This document shows, one piece after another, positions 4,039-25,560 of a DNA stretch of 25,560 nt. Every line of letters starts with the position of its first letter. The first letter of the stretch is position 1. Location: positions 1-25,560 of the forward strand of contig NIVC01005123.1 in the NCBI GenBank assembly GCA_002269645.1, read 5' to 3'. The DNA is from Macrostomum lignano (taxonomy: Eukaryota). The position numbers and the translations under genes were made by a program. The notes below the pieces were generated by a model. It did not search any database. It worked only from the letters and a program-made list of their open reading frames with translations, and was not told the origin of the DNA.

Positions 4039-6276
4039 CTCCAGAAATCAGCATCAACTCGAGCTAAGCTGATGCCGATGCCACCGGATGAGGATACTGG
4101 TGAGTTATTATTTCGCCCACCCACATTAGCTAACTCATCCAATCATCCGCTCACTCACACTACACACTCATTTATGATTACTCATTAGTAGCCACAAAAT
4201 CATTTCAACACACTCATTCTTCCCCAGAACCAGCATTGCCAGAGCCAGAGTCACAACCAGCGGCGTCAGAGCCAGGGACAGCAGAGCCAGAGTTACAACC
4301 AGCGGCGTCAGAGCCAGGGACAGCAGAGCCAGAGTTACAACCAGCGGCGTCAGAGCCAGGGACAGCAGAGCCAGAGTCACAACCAGCGGCGTCAGAGCCA
4401 GGGACAACAGAGTCATTAGAGTTAATCGAGCTCGAGCCAACGACTATCTCAAAGGGGTCTGTGGCAGTTGATGCGGCGGCCTCAGCTGCAATGCCAACAC
4501 TCCTAGATGTAGAGTCAGCGTCAGAAGGGTACCCACAGTTCCTTAATTTTGGTCAAGGCCCAATCAAGAAGCTGGGAGAAAAAGTGCAGGCATGCATCGG
4601 TCACAATCTGAGCAGTCCTGATGGCCTCGCCTTTTTGATGCTGACCGTCCTGCGGGCGTCTGGCGGCCTGGAGGCAAAGATGACAGCACAGGCGGTGGAA
4701 CTAGTGGCTCTTCGCAATGAAGTGGCGGGTCTGCGCAGTGAAGTTACTCGCCTCTCTGCTGCCTCACTGGATAATGAGCCAGTCGGTCCGCCAACAAGTA
4801 ATTTCTGGCCAATTTCTTCTTGGTCGGATTACATAGTTTGCCTCGTCGCCGGAAGAGTTGCTCGTCGAATTGGTTAGTGACATTCGCCTCGAAAGAATTA
4901 ACCAACATTCACTCACCAATTCATTCATTGATCCACCCAATGACTCATTCATTCATCAATCAATCAATCAATTTATTCTTTCACTCATTCACTCATCCAT
5001 GAGTCATGAACCATAACTCAACCCCTTAAGCCCACCATTTACAAAAACGCAGAGGGCAGCGCTGCTTTGCTGTAAATCAGCAAAATGGACCATGACCATC
5101 AGGGCAATGATGGACTTCGCCTTGGCAGCCGAAATGCAAAGGGCGATCAATTTTAACGGTCGCGAGATGGCAGAAAGAGCTCGCGCTGCTGGCTGTCCGA
5201 CATCTCTAACGGACGACATGCTCGTCTTTGAAAAAGCTTTTCTTCGGTGGTTTCAATGTGAGAATAGTTTTGTGATATACTGCGTTTAGAAACTGCATGC
5301 AGTAAAAGTAGCCACTTAAAAAACAATGCTGCCATGATTTAACTTGCAAAAAATTTAAAATGCACCCATTCCAGACGCTATAAACAGCATCTACGGGGAC
5401 TTCACCCTCCAGCCACAGATGAGACCAGCCCACGTTCCATCAATGGTGGAAGTGCGGAAAACATGTATGAACATGCTGAAGCATGCCATTGACCGCGTGA
5501 CACCTCGATCTCACAAGAAGATAACAACAGCCACAAACAGCCAGCAGCAAACGCCAGGGCGACAGCAACAGCAGCAGGAAGCGCTGGAGCAGCAGCAGCA
5601 AACGCCGGAGCAGCGGCAGCAGCAGCAGCAAACGCCAGAGCAGCGGCAGCAGCAGCAGCAAACGCCGGGGCAGCGGCAGCAGCAGCAAACGCTGGGGCGG
5701 CAGCAGCTGCAGCAAACGCCGGGCCAGCGTCAGCAGCAGCAAACGCCGGGCCAGCGGCAGCAGCAGCAAACGCCGGGCCAGCGGCAGCAGCAGCAAACGC
5801 CGGGCCAGCGGCAGCAGCAGCAAACGCCGGGCCAGCGGCAGCAGCAGCAAACGCTGGCCAGCGGCAGCAGCAGCAAACGCCGGGCCAGCGGCAGCAGCAG
5901 CAAACGCGGGCCAGCGGCAGCAGCAGCAAACGCCGGGCCAGCGGCAGCAGCAGCAAACGCCGGGCCAGTGGCAGCAGCAGCAGCAATCGCCGGGCCAGCG
6001 GCAGCAGCAGCAAATGCTGGGGCGCAGCAGCGGCAGAAAACGCCGGGGCAGCGGCAGCAGCAGTGCAGCGTAGCCGCCCTGCTGCCTAGTATCCATAATG
6101 CAAGAAGAGCCACTCTTGGCAGGTTTGAAGCGCTGCCAGACCTCGAACCTTGGGCCAAAAAGATGAAGATCTCAGAGAAGAAGAGTGAATACAGCAGCAG
6201 CTCGAGCGAAGACTCACGAACTGATTTTCTAACTGAAAATCTAACTGATGATGACCTTGACAGCGATTTTGACTAA
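4039..6276 (+). CDS. Spliced BEN/DUF4806-like putative DNA-binding protein with coiled coil, 14-aa repeats and Gln-rich tail (5' end missing)
   Basis: Approximate exons are 4039-4099, 4228-4797, 4837-4872, 5053-5257 and 5375-6276; the phase at the 4797/4837 junction is unresolved. Stitched peptide TIRAMMDFALAAEMQRAINFNGR...KAFLRWFQ|YAINSIY...EVRKTCMNMLKHAIDR resembles the BEN/DUF4806 pattern (N-W/F-x-G, K-x-F, L-K/R-H-A-x-D-R). It is preceded by the coiled coil VELVALRNEVAGLRSEVTRL. Confidence 0.55.
4240..4410 (+). repeat. 42-bp coding tandem repeat x4 (EPESQPAASEPGTA)
   Basis: Directly visible repeat of CAACCAGCGGCGTCAGAGCCAGGGACA. Confidence 0.95.
4907..5000. repeat. Intronic (CATT/CAAT)n-like low-complexity tract
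   Basis: Runs of TCAT, TCAA and CACT. Confidence 0.75.
5541..6063 (+). repeat. CAG-rich minisatellite of 24-27 nt units encoding QQQQTPGQR repeats
   Basis: GCAGCAGCAGCAAACGCCGGGCCAGCG is repeated many times. Indels shift the reading into Ser/Ala-rich repeats. Confidence 0.95.
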
Positions 6277-17908: not shown

Positions 17909-18079
17909 TTAGAAAGCCCAAGATAAGGCTATATCAGCACCCCAATTACTCGTATCAGGGCCGCCGTTTTCTACGTCTAGGGGGATTATGTGTTCGGGTA
18001 TATCACCGTCGAAGGCGGCTAATTCTTCAGCTGGGCGGTTGTTGTCCCAGAGGGTGGATAGAGCTCGGCGGCGAGACAT
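17909..18079 (-). CDS. 56-aa orphan ORF (MSRRRALSTLWDNNRPAEELAAFDGDIPEHIIPLDVENGGPDTSNWGADIALSWAF)
   Basis: Not in the ORF track because it is under 60 aa. It has an upstream TATATAA (18150-18156, minus strand), a CCAAT box at 18180-18184, and ATTAAA just after the stop. Confidence 0.5.
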   Translation of the reverse strand: MSRRRALSTLWDNNRPAEELAAFDGDIPEHIIPLDVENGGPDTSNWGADIALSWAF

Positions 18080-18190
18080 GTTGGAATCAGCAGACTATAG
18101 TATCAGGGCTAGGATTAGGGTTTGGCTCTCTAGAGGCTGGATAGATTAGTTATATAGGGAGCCCCGCGGGTGGCGCGAGCCAATAGGGAA

Positions 18191-18740
18191 CTACCAGCGC
18201 TGACTCTCGTCAAACAGATTTTCCCAGGGCGGGGATTGGTAGGGTTTGTGACCCACAACCTGGAGAACGTCCTGGAGATTTTCTTCCTCCTCCTCAGTCC
18301 TGGCTACCGGAGAGGTCTCGGTCCTGGCTCGCTTGGCTAGCGGCGGGGCCTTGGGTTTGAAGAGCTTGCCCAAACGGGCGGCAAACATCCGGTGCCACAG
18401 TTCAGGCGTGAATTCAATTGTGTAGCGCTAATTGAACTTTGGATCCCGATTAAGCCAATTGCGCCGCAAACGAATCCTCCCCCTGTGAAGCTTCTGCCGC
18501 CTTGAAGTTGCCCAACACGACTCTCTTGTCCACGTGAAGACGTGCCGCAGCCTCCAGGTCAGGGCGTGCAGCTTCGAGCTTCTTCCACTCGACCTCGCTT
18601 AAATAGATTGCTGGGAAGCCGTCCTTCCACACTCCAGCTTCGTCGGTGTAGAGCCGACGGATTTCAATTAAGTCATGTTCCGTTTCAAATGTGGGCTTCC
18701 GCGCCACAAAGTTTTCGTATAGAGCGATAGAAGAAGACAT
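18191..18740 (-). CDS. PC4/Sub1-like ssDNA-binding protein, probably with tandem PC4 folds and a basic/acidic tail, now split by a frameshift and a stop
   Basis: DLIEIRRLYTDEAGVWKDGFPAIYLSEVEWKKL matches the PC4 signature (IDIRExY...GISL..EQW..L). A second PC4-like stretch IRLRRNWLNRDPKFN*RYTIEFTPELWHRM is in frame with ORF 18191-18388. TATATAAA lies at 18785-18792 on the minus strand. Confidence 0.7.
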
Positions 18741-18956
18741 GATTAGCAGCAGCAGCAGAGAGCTCTCTGATAGCCGCGCAGCGCTTTATATACCCCCAGA
18801 TGGAGGGTGGGAGGGTGTGATTTTGGGGTGATTTTGAGTGATTCTGGTTGGTTTTTTGGTGATTTGGCCAATAATAGACGAGCTAAGCAAGTTTTTAGTA
18901 AATATTCGGACCCCTAGAACAGGGGTAGAGAGATAATCCTTCTCTCTGTATGCAAA
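18741..18956. promoter_or_regulatory. Compact divergent promoter region between the PC4-like gene and pPolB
   Basis: 216 bp between head-to-head start codons (18740 minus, 18957 plus), with a clear TATA box for the minus-strand gene. Confidence 0.55.
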
Positions 18957-21900
18957 ATGGCTAAACGCAGCGCAGCATCGACCACTTTCCTGGCTGACAA
19001 GAGGCAACGTCTTTATGGTAAGTTTTAATTAATTTCTGACATCAGTCTAGACGGGTTTTGAGTTGCTGCAGCAGGGAGCTTCTATGAATTGACAGGGACA
19101 GGAGCAAGAGGGGCTCGATAGAGAGTTGAAAAGAGCAGGTTAGACAGGCGGGGTTAACAAAGAGTTTAGGGGTTTGTCGCTGTGACAGCTTCAGGAGCAT
19201 GCGGGAATTCAGAGTGCTGCGACAGGGGGCTTACGAGTTTGAGTAGGGAAGGCGCGCAAACAAATAGCAGGCCGGATAACAGCTGCGGGCGGGGGTTAAA
19301 AAATTGCAGAGCGTTTCAGCAGGAGGGTCTACGCGCAAGAGGTTATGTGGGAACACAAACAATGAGCCAGACCGATAAAAAATGGTGGGCGCTCTGACAG
19401 CTGCAGGAGCATGCGGGAATTCAGAGTGCTGCGACAGGGGGCTTACGAGTTTGAGTAGGGAAGACGCGCAAACAAAGAACCAGGCTGGATGCGGCTGGGG
19501 TTAAAAAATTGCAGACGCGTGTCGGGAGGAGGCATGAGTGCGAGGGGTTATGGGGGAGCGCAAACAAAGAACCAGGCTGGATGCGGCTAGGGTTAAAAAA
19601 AATTGCAGAGCGTTTCAGCAGCAGGGCTTGTGCGGGAGGGGTAGCGCAAACAATGAGCCAGGCAAATGCGGCTGGGGTTAAAAAAATTGCAGACGCGTCT
19701 CGGCAGGGGGCATGCGTGCGAGGGGTTATGGGGGAGCGCTAACAAAGAGCCAGGCGGGATGCGGCTGGGGTTAAAAAAATAGCAGAGCGTGTCGGCGGGA
19801 GGGCCTGAGCGCAAGGGGGGAGCGTGAACAATGAGTCGGTTGGAGTCTGATCCTTGGGGTGCCACGAATTGACAGATTCTTCTGGTTTTTTATCTCCTTG
19901 TGTTTTTTCAGACGCGTTTGTCCCGCCAACACAGCCGGAATCTGTTACCGGACCGGGTGAGTTATCCAGCCCCCCATTCCCTAGACAGACCGGGCTGACT
20001 CACACCCCCCCCCATTCGTTCCATGCAGGTTTCACGGCCCGGCTGGATAATCAGCGCGACCTGCCCAAGTTTAGGGCAAAGGGTGTTGAATATGTTGTGA
20101 AGTTAGATGACACCGAAGATTTACGCGAGACATTTGCCAGTATGCTCGATGTCTTTAAGCAAGATTTGGCCGGCGAGGATTTCATGGCTGCGAAATTCGA
20201 GAGCGATAACATGCTCCAAGCGGCTCATACTCCCCCGGTGCGTGCAGCCCGCATGACAGCAGAGTTGTTGTTTAAGCACATTGACAAGATTGTGCAGTCG
20301 GATGCAACCGTATTAAGCAACAACTTTTCTATCCGACTGCTAAAGGCCTGGGTGCCTCGAGGTGGTTGTGCCCTCGAGAACAAGCATCTAGAAGAGCGGC
20401 ACGCCTTCTCCCGCCACTATGTCAGCATCAACAACACGGACAAGAGGTGCCTGCTGCGAGCGCTTGTTGTCGCATGCGCCTACCTGCAATTTGTGGCCAA
20501 GCGCATCACCGAGGATGTGTGGCGCAGGATCAAGACCAATTCGCCCAAGCAGACTAAGCTGGCGACTGAGCTGCAAGTCGAAGCAGGCCTCTACACGGTA
20601 AGTTGTGCACTAGTATCAGTATCATGGAATACTAAAAGATATATTTTCTGATAAGAATTTTTACGCAGTATCATGGAATACTAAAAGAAATCTTACATAG
20701 TACCAGGGAATACTAAAAGAATTTTTACACAGTATCATGGAATACTAAAAGATATATTTTCCGATAATATTTTTTACATAGTATCAGGGAATACTAAAAG
20801 AAATATTTTACCCCCACACAGACTCATCAAATCGTCTCGCAGGCTGGTCCTTTCGGGCTGGATGCACTGCCCGAAGCGATCTGTTCCCTGAACCGGCTGC
20901 ATCCTGGCCACAACTTTGGTGTACGCGTGTACCGGGCAGAGGAGGCCAACAGGTGCATCTTCAACCTGCCTGGCACCGAGATTCTGCACCTGCACCTGGT
21001 TGAACAGCACTTCAATGTGATCACCAAGCTGCCTGCGTTTTTCGGCAGCCACCACTACTGTGCCAAGTGCGAGATGGCCTATGATAGCGACCCCGCCAAG
21101 CACAAGTGTGCGGATGCCTGTAGCACCTGCAAGACTCCGGGCTCTAACTGCAAGGTCAACCGCGCATATGTAAGATGCCAGGATTGCGGGCTAAACTGTT
21201 ATAATGCTCAGTGCCTAGAGAATCACAAGCGCAAGAATAAGGCGGGCAGATCTCGCTGTGATTCAGTCCACGTTTGCGGCACGTGCGGCTATCTAGAAGA
21301 ACTAAAAGTAGGCCAAGCCCCCGAGCATCAGTGTGGTTACGCCAAGTGCCCAGTCTGCAAGCAGTACGACGAAACTGCCACCCACGAGTGCTTTGTCACC
21401 CCGCCCAAAGCCAAAGAGTCTAGCGCCCCGTAAGTTTACTATGATTTTGAGACGTACGTGGACTCGGGAAAGCAGCACCGGGTACACTTGGTTACGGCAG
21501 CTACCTCCTGCGAGGCGTGTCCCAAACTCTTCCCCAGGCCCCGCTGCGGCGCGTGCGGGGGACTACACAGCTCAGCCAATTGCATTGCGGGACGCGATTT
21601 GGCGCGCGATTTTACGAGCTGTGTGTCCCACAGCGACTGTGCCTGCGGGATGCGAGAGTTTGTATCCGTCGGGCCGCACTCTATAGACGCTTTTTACTGC
21701 TGGTTGACTACACTGTTCAAGCAGGGAGCTATTGCTATAGCGCACAATGGCTCTGCGTACGATGCATTCCTCCTGCTCGGCGCCCTACTCAATGGCCTGG
21801 CCAAGAAGAAGCCGCAGGTGATTTTCCAAAACAGCCGCCTAATGTATAAGAAGTGCGACAAGATCGCATTCAAGGACAGCCTCAACTTTATCCCTATTGG

Positions 21901-22783
21901 TCTGGCGCAATTCCCAAAGGCGCTTGGTTTGGGCACCCAACTGACCAAGGGAGATTTACCGCACGTGTTTAATCAGCCAGAAAACTGGGGCTACGTGGGG
22001 CCCTACTGCTCAATTGAAATGTACGGAGGCAAGAAAAACAAGCAGCACGACTCTATCACAGACTGGCTGGCCAAGCAGGAGGGTCGAGTGTTTGATTTCA
22101 ATAAGGAGTACCTGGACTATTGCCTGCAGGACACGCTAATTTTGCGGGAAGGCTGTCTAAAGTACGCCCGCCTGATTAAGGACATTTGCGGACTGGACGC
22201 ATTTGTTCAATCCAACACCATTGCGGGCTTGGCTATGGCAGTATTCACCACCAAGTTTATGGAGCCCAACACTCTTGGGGTGATTTCCCGCCGATCGGAT
22301 GTACAGTCGCACAAGGCGCGGTGCTGGCTTGCACATTTGAATGCAACCGAGTTTGGCGGCCGGTTGAGGACAGCGGACTCGGGCGGCGAGGCTTTTGCCA
22401 TGGGTCGTAAGGTGGACGGCTTCGACCCGGAGACTAGGACGGTGCTGCAGTTTCACGGCTGCTTCTTCCACGGTTGCCCAAAGTGCTTCCCCAATGGCGA
22501 CGTGCTGCACCCGCTCAAGAACCAGCCAATGCGGGCAATTTATGAAGAGACTGAGCGCTTCACTCGCCTGCTCTCTACCGCCTACAATGTGCGTGTCATG
22601 TGGGAGCACGACTATCAGGACGAGGGAGCGCCAGTCCAGCAGCCTATTCGCCTGGAGGATGCCCTGTTTGGCGGACGCACCGAGGCTTTTGTCCCGCACG
22701 CCGAGGCCACCGAGACTGTGCAGCTGCGCTATCGGGATGTGGTAAGTTTGTACACTTTTCAAAGTTTTTTCAAAATTTCTCAT

Positions 22784-22833
<50 letters not shown>

Positions 22834-24293
22834 GACTTGTGTTTGAGTTTGGCCTACTTACCCCCCTAGGTGTCGCTCTACCCGACTGTCAACAAGTTTG
22901 ACAAGTACCCCGTCGGGCATCCGGTTCACCACCCCGAGCCTCATCTACTGGATGAGCAGCAGCTGGCCCGGTATTTTGGCATCGCCGAGGTGTCAATTCT
23001 GCCGCCAACCAATCTCCACATTCCGCTACTGCCCGCCAAGATTAGCAAGAAGCTAGTTTTCGGCCTCTGCCGCGTCTGCATGGAGACCCAGTGCAGCAGC
23101 GAGTGTACACACACTGACGCTGAGAGAATGCTCCGCGGCACGTGGTCGACCCCAGAGCTCCACAAGGCCCTGCAGTTGGGTTAAAAGCTGCAGTCAGTTC
23201 ATGCCCTGGCCTATTGGACCAAGACTCGGACCGGGCTGTTTGCTTATTATGTAAACACCTTTTTAAAGCTCAAAGCCGAGTCTAGCGGTTCGCCGGGGAT
23301 GACTGAGGACGCCAAGGCTGCCTACATGGCCAGCTTTTTTGAGCGCGAAGGCGTCCGGCTGGAAAAGGTGGAAGAAAATCCTGGCCTGCGCTTTGTTGCC
23401 AAGATTTTTCTAAACTCGTAAGTCTGGGTTTGAACAGTGGGGACCGTGTTTTTCTACTTACAGTAGTAATACTAAATCTTTTTTTCCCTGCAGGCTCTGG
23501 GGCAAATTCTGCCAGCCGGATGACTTGACCTCCACAGAGATTGTGGACAGTTACGAGGCGTGGCTGCAGCGCCTGACAGACCCGTCCATCAAAGTCAAGT
23601 CGTGCGAGCCAATAGGAGAGTGCTTCATGATGCTTGAATACAAGCCCCGAATTGGTGTTGCTGGCGAGCGGGCATTCAAGTACGCCAATGTACCTATTGG
23701 AGTTTTCACCACCTCCCATGCCCGGCTGCGACTCTACGAGGCTCTGGAGGGCCTAGGAACCCGCGTGATTTACGCCGATACTGATTCGTAAGTTTTTCAC
23801 ACTGTCTGTCTGTCTGCTTCGCTCCCCTAAACACTTTATTCTCCTCCTCCTCCCCAGGGTCGTATACCGGTGCTCTCCGGGCGAGTACGAGCCTCCGGGC
23901 GGATCGAGTTTGGGGCAGTGGACTGACGAGGTACCTGCCGGCTGCCGCATGGTACAGTTCACCACGGGAGGCCCCAAGCTCTATCGCTATGTGGTGGAGA
24001 AGCCCGACGGGTCGCTGTACTCGGTGCTCAAGTGCAAGAGCATCCGAGTCACGCCCGAGATTTCCGAGCGGGAGGCGGAGCTGCAGGAGATTCTGCGCCA
24101 CGGCGGGGCTGTACGGCTGCCCCAGGCACAGTTCAGGCGCGACAAGGCCAGCTGTACAATTCGGACCCTGGAGATGGATAAGACATTCCAGCGCGTCATG
24201 ACTAAGCGAGTGTATGGGTCTGGCAGCCGCCCGTTTGGCTTTCGGGAGCCTCCCTTGACTGAGATTCCCCTGTCTGTGCGGCACTTGGGATAA
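18957..24293 (+). CDS. polB: Protein-primed family B DNA polymerase (Polinton/Maverick/adintovirus type), 6 exons, about 1314 codons, two internal TAA
   Basis: Exons 18957-19017, 19912-20597, 20822-22741, 22870-23417, 23494-23787 and 23858-24293 total 3945 nt, are all GT-AG and phase-compatible. Motifs are ExoI YYDFETY, ExoII AHNGSAYD, ExoIII YCLQD, LFGGRTE, motif A RDV|VSLYP, motif B KIFLNS|LWGKF, motif C YADTDS|VVY, and GGPKLY. In-frame TAA at 21431 and 23182. AATAAA overlaps the final stop. Confidence 0.93.
19183..19838. repeat. Higher-order repeat array in pPolB intron 1
   Basis: The core GCGGCTGGGGTTAAAAAA(A)TTGCAGA (with variants) has its TTA at 19296, 19501, 19593, 19678 and 19771. 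An about 82-bp direct repeat also occurs at 19183 and 19395. Confidence 0.9.
20618..20800. repeat. Five 21-bp quasi-palindromic repeats in pPolB intron 2
   Basis: AGTA(T/C)CA(T/G)GGAATACTAAAAG at 20618, 20667, 20699, 20731 and 20780. Confidence 0.92.
22786..22830. repeat. (CA)n microsatellite in pPolB intron 3
   Basis: Uninterrupted CA run of about 22 units. Confidence 0.97.
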
Positions 24294-24312
24294 TAAAACC
24301 TATTTGGAAGCT

Positions 24313-24496
24313 CCCCTGGGGAGAATTCTCTTTGTATGCGGTCTGCTACCTCCACTGTACATTGGGGCGGTCTCTGTTACTCCTCTCTGCCCGCACTGTA
24401 CTCCGCTAAGGATCCCCCGGCCCTGGGGAGGAATTGAATTTCTCTATGTTACTCCGCCTGCACTGTACATTGGGATCCCCCGGCCCTGGGAGGAAT
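24313..24496. repeat. Degenerate direct repeats downstream of pPolB
   Basis: CACTGTAC x3, GGATCCCCCGGCCCTGGG(G)AGGAAT x2, TGTTACTCC x2. Confidence 0.75.
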
Positions 24497-25063
24497 GCGG
24501 GGCGTGTCTCTTTACTAGGAAGCCGGATATTTTACTTTGCACCTATAAGCTTAATTTTGCACACATATGTTGTATTATACTTAACTTCCAGTGTGTGTAT
24601 TTTATCCTATGCATTGAAATTTGTGCCTGCGGTTAATATGCAAAATGTAATGTTTAAAATCTGCCTACATTATATGCTATGTAATTTTCCTGTATTATAC
24701 TCAATTTGCACCTACAGTGTATGTATGCACCTGCATAATTGAAATCGAGAGTGCGTATGTGTATTTCCGCCTATGTTTAATTTTCCTGCAGTATACTTGA
24801 ATCTGCCTACTACACTAATATGTACCCGCTTTGTATTTTGCCTGTTTTACCGTCTGCCAATATAACGATAATATCATTATGTATACCTAAGTTTGTACAC
24901 CTATATGCATTATGCACCAATATGTACATTTTAATATGCACCTGCATTATACCTATGCGCCTACCATGTATTTTTTATACTTTTTATGTAAATATACGCA
25001 ATTTCACCTACTATAAGTAGTTTTCGTAATTTTGTGTGTTAATATCGCTGACTATACGTATCG

Positions 25064-25340
25064 GTGTACACCTGTATTGGGCGAGTGTACACCTGTATTG
25101 GGTGAGTGTACACCTGGCGCCTGTGGCGGGAGGGTCTACATATCTGGAGGGTGAGCCTGCGGCTCGGGAGGGTCGCCTCCAGCTGCGCCTGCGGCATACA
25201 TATCGTAGGGTGTACTTATCGGGAGGGTCTACATATCGGGAGGGTCTACATATCGGAGGGTCTACATATCGGAGGGCCGCCTGCGGCATACATATCGGGG
25301 GAGGGCGCCTGCGGCATGGCGCCTGCGGCGCGCGCGCGCG
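25064..25340. repeat. GC-rich composite repeat block
   Basis: 21-bp GTGTACACCTGTATTGGGyGA units at 25064, 25085 and 25106 (last one partial); 16-17 bp GGAGGGTCTACATATC x4; GCCTGCGGC x5; ends in a (GC)n run. Confidence 0.9.
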
Positions 25341-25348
25341 AGCGCCAG

Positions 25349-25478
25349 CCAATGAGAGGCGAGGAGGGTTGACACCCACCCCACCTCCAAAAACGCCCGG
25401 ATACGGGTTCATATAGTAGTGCGTTGAACTTTCGAATTTCCGCCGGCGTTGTGGTCGCACATATAAATCCGGAAGTAT
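25349..25478 (+). promoter_or_regulatory. Candidate Pol II promoter for a gene beyond the right edge
   Basis: CCAAT at 25349-25353, TATAAA at 25462-25467, and CCGGAAGT (ETS-like) immediately after. Confidence 0.4.
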
Positions 25479-25560
25479 CGCAGACGAATCACAACGAAAT
25501 TCTTTCTCCTTGTTTTACTCGCGACTGCCGGGGTCCTCAAATTCCGGGGAGGGTAGTCAT

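Follow-up and report, generated by a model that had tools for sequence, protein, structure and literature searches.

The window, by which we mean the whole 25,560-nucleotide stretch of DNA from the flatworm Macrostomum lignano that was analysed, contains the remnant of an element of about 10 kb and, within it, a gene whose match to PF03175 and whose motifs A, B and C identify it as a protein-primed family B DNA polymerase (pPolB). Six introns interrupt this gene, three of them inside the catalytic motifs. The features are as follows.

17977..25560, no strand assigned: remnant of a ~10-kb element with terminal inverted repeats of ~0.9 kb; the left part is missing and the right end lies off the contig
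18453..18743, minus strand: short divergently oriented frame, weakly similar to PC4 (Pfam PF02229, E 0.049, below the cut-off)
18957..24293, plus strand: pPolB gene (PF03175) in seven exons with 3870 nt of coding sequence; putative start codon; broken copy
19018..19911, plus strand: intron 1, N-terminal region, GT..AG; joint seen on a sister copy in three studies and mapped to the window
19957..20028, plus strand: intron 2, N-terminal region, 72 nt; sister-copy joint mapped to the window
20598..20821, plus strand: intron 3, N-terminal region; sister-copy joint mapped to the window, with a second in-frame acceptor at 20842
21431..21433, plus strand: in-frame stop, also in one other of 12 copies
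22370..22620, plus strand: Vsr-like nuclease domain inside the polymerase, motif seen, bounds approximate
22742..22869, plus strand: motif A intron, phase 0, D-V|V-S-L-Y-P, 128 nt, with a CA repeat inside
23182..23184, plus strand: in-frame stop, in the window copy only, of 12
23418..23493, plus strand: motif B intron, phase 2, in the Ser of L-N-S-L-W-G-K, 76 nt
23788..23857, plus strand: motif C intron, phase 2, in the Ser of D-T-D-S, 70 nt

The initial annotation counted five introns; the N-terminal region holds three, intron 1 having been missed earlier, so that the share in the motifs is three of six rather than three of five. Introns 1-3 sit in variable regions of pPolB, and the donor of intron 3 has the same position in the sister family. 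Direct repeats of ~90 nt and ~210 nt upstream of the second exon lie wholly within intron 1 (window 19178-19835), and intron 3 contains repeats of 49-64 nt. Further introns proposed by the aligner at ~21430-21630 fall in a poorly aligned stretch, were inconsistent between references and were discarded; the GTAAGT at 21430 was likewise rejected as a donor, as it overlaps the stop and the introns placed there disagreed between references. The window copy is probably dead because of its in-frame stops at 21431 and 23182, and pN/pS is 0.06-0.075 among the four copies with unbroken exons. The Vsr-like insert lies before motif A; its family profile matches E. coli Vsr at E 0.006, a weak likeness and not a structural one, and the window's piece of the domain alone found no match in the PDB. 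This architecture of PF03175, motifs A, B and C and a Vsr-like insert is that of the pPolB2 group, whose members have a VSR nuclease insert and are known from marine nematodes and molluscs (10.1101/2023.08.22.554363).

The PC4-like frame is part of the element and is kept in sister copies, which are themselves ~10-kb elements with terminal inverted repeats. In three of these, read by eye, the target duplications measure 6, 6 and 5 bp and the terminal repeats 0.3-0.95 kb. Terminal inverted repeats and target duplications of 5-6 bp are shared with Polinton/Maverick elements; the Macrostomum element, however, is only ~10 kb long, with no integrase found and no capsid gene recognised. A tblastn search with a Polinton integrase found no match in the window, nor within the elements in five neighbourhoods of 40 kb, and 106 Polinton-type integrase matches lie elsewhere in the genome, several of them near uninterrupted pPolB families. 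We infer that the element is a reduced one, moved in trans. Its larger frames gave no Pfam or Atlas match for capsid, packaging ATPase or protease, a search that split genes could escape, and an orphan frame of 376 aa gave no usable Atlas match. Elements of ~10 kb with inverted repeats that combine pPolB, the PC4-like frame and this orphan frame are seen in the window (17977-25560) and at G000:C491:285030-295129 and G000:C566:83277-92764; the integrase-less elements apparently form a non-autonomous Polinton-like class of tens of copies. We found no paper on the Polintons of Macrostomum lignano. The copy closest to the window (98% identical) is broken up by a 10.8-kb insertion with tandem repeats (G000:C38:1106254-1117086), and an element of the sister family (family B) has an insertion with an unbroken LINE-like frame of 1558 aa with endonuclease, reverse transcriptase and RNase H domains (L147:609-5282). 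Several additional pPolB families, with open frames of 1100-1480 aa, are present in the same genome. Outside the element, at window 5359-6276, a glutamine-rich frame of 305 aa derives from an array of 27-nt repeats.

That motifs A, B and C are each split, as had been proposed from the sequence, is borne out: the junctions lie exactly at 22741/22870, 23417/23494 and 23787/23858, and spliced alignment of protein to DNA gave these introns again with all three distant reference proteins (~35% identical). The introns have the character of major-spliceosome (GT-AG) introns: their ends are GT..AG, their removal restores the frame, and their interior is free to vary. Introns B and C, both in phase 2, each bring an in-frame stop right at their start. 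A genome search yielded 50 matches from 40 of 132 candidates scored. In the window family, GT..AG ends are present in every scored copy (28/28 for A, 28/28 for B and 25/25 for C, where three copies were unscorable). In a second family (family B, ~64% identical), every scored copy is interrupted at these three positions too (11/11, 11/11 and 9/9, respectively), by introns whose sequences are largely different from those of the window family; each of the three motif introns is thus present in every scored copy of both families. Uninterrupted motifs occur in L058, a decayed relative in the same genome. Across copies the lengths of the motif introns fall into all three classes modulo 3, and divergence amounts to 0.12-0.15 substitutions per site plus many indels in the introns, against 0.035-0.062 in the exons. 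The V-S-L-Y with which intron A begins in some copies might have marked a duplicated motif; it is absent from the sister family and is put down to chance.

Splicing was examined on a sister copy that is 89-91% identical over the pPolB gene, using contigs from four runs, three of them putative RNA runs of separate studies and the fourth a probable DNA run; the run types are guesses, as no run is recorded as RNA, and contigs only were compared. The joint of intron B appears in all three putative RNA studies, that of intron A in two of the three, and those of the three N-terminal introns in all three; the run that is probably DNA has neither the A nor the B joint. Putative RNA support thus extends to A and B, while the joint of C is not among the 15 of 32 rows listed, in which a repeat inside intron C was skipped, and intron C therefore rests on the comparison of copies. 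One low-depth contig (run X5) crosses intron C unspliced. The motif introns are real, host-spliced, and fixed in two families under purifying selection. It had been suggested that they make activity strictly dependent on splicing, which is true but would hold for any frame-breaking intron upstream of motif C, so that this dependence does not explain their positions. The claim that they hide the gene from searches based on open reading frames holds in part: Pfam still matches a 436-aa piece (E 1e-13), and UniRef gene models of Macrostomum lignano already splice at the pPolB motifs, whereas relatives in the database appear cut there.

Those relatives provide the map of introns across pPolBs, a fair survey of which is limited to motif A and downstream. 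In a metagenome survey, 26 loci were found with exonuclease-region patterns, and nine of them span motif B. Four of the nine (L107-L110), forming one family that sits beside an rve integrase, have a single GT..AG intron of 89-90 nt with an in-frame stop; it falls within the motif B Trp codon and, at the DNA level, lies 5 nt away from the window site, and motif B is the sole interrupted site in the aligned gene. Many other pPolB relatives are uninterrupted in their DNA. Most of the remaining cross-lineage cases are protein ends, interpreted at the protein level. We examined the best 150 of 1548 representatives matching a profile of the A-to-B region at E<1e-30; 95 are full length and 55 end early, or 53 when two with internal repeats are set aside. 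Ten of these 53 stop within 8 residues of motif B, where 1.8 would be expected (P 1e-5, the window having been chosen afterwards). Three of the ten, from a mealybug and two spiders, are NCBI models whose ends are not contig ends, because they lie on chromosome-size records. Among the same best 150, inspection by eye found donor-like read-through at motif B in eight proteins (N-R-stop, N-R-Y, N-C-K, W-G-K plus junk, K-L-V-S) and at motif C in three (D-T-G-K/E); two further candidates lie at other places downstream of B, around residues 1131 and 1212. A cluster of 443 members appears to be delimited by one intron immediately ahead of motif A and another within the motif B Gly. Read at the protein level, these truncated relatives suggest no fewer than five sites of intron insertion in motif B, and introns in motif C in three lineages; distant relatives have likely acquired introns independently, at nearby bases within these motifs.

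A tree was built from 225 A-to-B segments, 34 of them interrupted at motif B, 173 uninterrupted and 18 left out. Over the 207 scored tips it requires at least 15 changes of state at motif B, involving five positions, one of which is common to 23 of the 34 interrupted tips; these figures come from ~180 residues with weak deep support, and some tips scored as uninterrupted may be spliced transcripts. Viral contigs contained no relative of the window exon or of the N-R-stop clade, and searching them with split-motif patterns gave either no match or 85 matches, none of the 80 fetched being pPolB; 21 viral loci were found with intact-motif patterns, a set biased toward uninterrupted genes. A 358-aa fragment of a pPolB of the window type, running from the Vsr-like domain through motif B, lies among ankyrin-like genes at L088:2971-4047; fragments of this type occur on viral contigs of 339-733 kb, suggesting capture by a giant virus. 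Motif-splitting introns represent a real and apparently general pattern in pPolB.

The initial annotation regarded the placement as non-random, and on balance the tests agree. In an alignment of 37 sequences the motif intron sites rank in the 97th-99th percentile for conservation. If six sites are drawn at random, the best three reach this level with P 0.0003-0.002, depending on window and statistic, and the chance that all three named motif windows are struck is 3e-5; a version of the conservation test with edge artefacts gave P 0.012-0.016. Averaged over all six introns, of which the two nearest the N-terminus were placed approximately, conservation is not significant (P 0.17-0.26). Each of these tests is post hoc. 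High conservation by itself does not account for the sites, because about 13 other blocks equal them in this respect, and the comparison across lineages adds that interruptions elsewhere strike the same motifs. What needs explaining, as inferred from proteins that end early, would be many gains within ~20 nt of motif B, fewer over shorter stretches of A and C, and few at equally conserved blocks. Such a pattern is as expected of selfish homing elements, not of ordinary introns.

We consider it most likely, with a probability of about 0.4, that homing-type cutting acts at the pPolB motifs and that introns are kept there because they destroy the cut site. A site-specific nuclease would cut the invariant codons of the motifs; it could be borne by an intron or an intein, be free-standing, or be the polymerase's own Vsr-like domain. 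The intron would arise in the repair of the break, or be what remains of a nuclease-carrying intron that has lost its gene. Because it would remove the recognition site and leave the protein unaltered, it would spread, and only an exact deletion could remove it. Homing nucleases recognise sites of 12-40 bp, the size of the motif B footprint (PMC2814812), those of phages are directed at residues critical to essential genes (PMC2988022), and homing nucleases are present in polinton-like viruses (PMC12220804). Since motifs A, B and C are unlike one another as DNA, a single nuclease would not cut them all. Half of the pPolB introns (3/6) lie in variable sequence, which counts against homing, the motif introns examined (65-144 nt) contain no nuclease frame, and no intein-sized insert follows motif B among the best 150 of 1548 representatives, some rows of which are mis-anchored. 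A narrower form of this reading, that the Vsr-like domain is a homing-type nuclease cutting motif B of rivals and that the short introns are recurrent immunity spread by gene conversion (collaborative homing), seems to us unlikely; the Vsr-like motif is also found in relatives without a motif intron (L058, L083, L085, L087).

The strongest competitor does without a nuclease, and although we find it somewhat improbable we take it seriously: introns would arise anywhere and be purged from compact elements by imprecise deletion, while codons intolerant of indels keep theirs. Such survival bias requires no unseen enzyme, covers three unrelated motifs and many phases, and agrees with the retention of all motif introns by every scored copy. 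It sits poorly with the three N-terminal introns, which persist in variable sequence, one of them common to both families, and with the finding that, among the best 150 of 1548, three other conserved blocks downstream of B give only one candidate against eight at B and three at C. Alternatively, a small number of ancient introns may have been passed down, shifting by a few bases and disappearing many times, or chance may have combined with easier recognition of breaks at invariant residues. Families A and B do hold all three positions by descent, a single position accounts for 23 of the 34 interrupted motif-B tips, and the significance tests are post hoc. We nevertheless doubt this account, since motif B has at least five distinct positions, Ser is split as TC in some lineages and as AG in others, and many relatives are uninterrupted in DNA; ease of recognition does not enter the test on protein C-termini, which is independent of recognising read-through.

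Less probable still is a preference at insertion, by which the invariant Asn-Ser, Trp-Gly-Lys and Asp-Ser codons keep proto-splice sites or transposon targets where insertions recur. The proto-splice context fits some intron classes and not others: the commonest class, N-R-stop, implies an exon ending in AG, and 2 of 10 uninterrupted relatives have a cryptic GGTAA in motif B, but the exon ends in TC before window introns B and C and in TTTT before the L107 intron, neither of them a proto-splice end, and an AGG site was found in just 1 of 29 motif stretches of relatives. Intron B, moreover, matches polymerase copies only (19/19), and the six introns are mutually unrelated. We give as little weight to a functional switch in which regulated retention or skipping would time the active polymerase. 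The in-frame stops and shared phase 2 of introns B and C, and the unspliced X5 contig, would suit it; yet any upstream intron would serve, no exon-skipping joint is among the 15 of 32 rows listed, and that contig may be DNA or pre-mRNA. Two sources of introns were also rejected. Host polymerases, which we take from their motifs to be delta, alpha and zeta, are split at none of seven motif instances (delta A/B/C, alpha A/B/C, zeta C), and an introner family is contradicted, for intron B, by the polymerase flanks of all 19 of its genome matches.

Inteins sit in all three motifs (A, B and C) of family B polymerases; our literature search found no paper on inteins at these positions. The initial annotation raised descent from inteins or self-splicing introns, for which the introns themselves offer no support: at 65-144 nt they contain neither a long frame nor an unusual fold (the longest stop-free frame in a motif intron is 23-42 aa, and the folding z ranges from -1.0 to 1.2, which speaks equally little for a shintron) and are mutually unrelated. 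Like inteins and group I introns, which according to PMC2814812 favour conserved sites where spliceosomal introns do not, they are placed at invariant residues; they differ in being spliceosomal, in using several phases per motif and in having no splicing domain, ribozyme fold or nuclease. An intron at the codon of an intein is described for Bathycoccus PRP8 (PMC3749507). The spliceosomal homing introns ('shintrons') of mirusviruses, nuclear DNA viruses for which homing is proposed and whose shintrons carry Vsr-like nucleases among others, are also GT-AG introns in conserved core genes (PMC12768974); they lie in morphogenesis genes, whereas the pPolB introns are 65-144 nt long, geneless and in polymerase catalytic motifs. 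Dinoflagellate introners resemble the present case in being spliceosomal introns inside Polinton-like elements (10.1101/2025.03.18.643946), and are unlike the motif introns, which are mutually unrelated and do not form a repeat family beyond the polymerase gene. Vertebrate Mavericks, where intact, are reported to be intronless (PMC8097293), in contrast to the six spliceosomal introns of the window pPolB. In the open-access literature, supplements, subscription papers and Repbase aside, we found no report of motif-targeted spliceosomal introns in pPolB.

The pattern departs from the reported lack of preference for conserved sites among spliceosomal introns (PMC2814812) and from the description of Polinton core genes as lacking introns. 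In practical terms, motif-based searches or primers will miss elements with split motifs, and surveys blind to introns will count such elements as broken. How introns arise and persist is a long-standing question, to which repeated gain in one 20-nt motif brings a compact natural test of break repair, homing and the bias imposed by precise loss.
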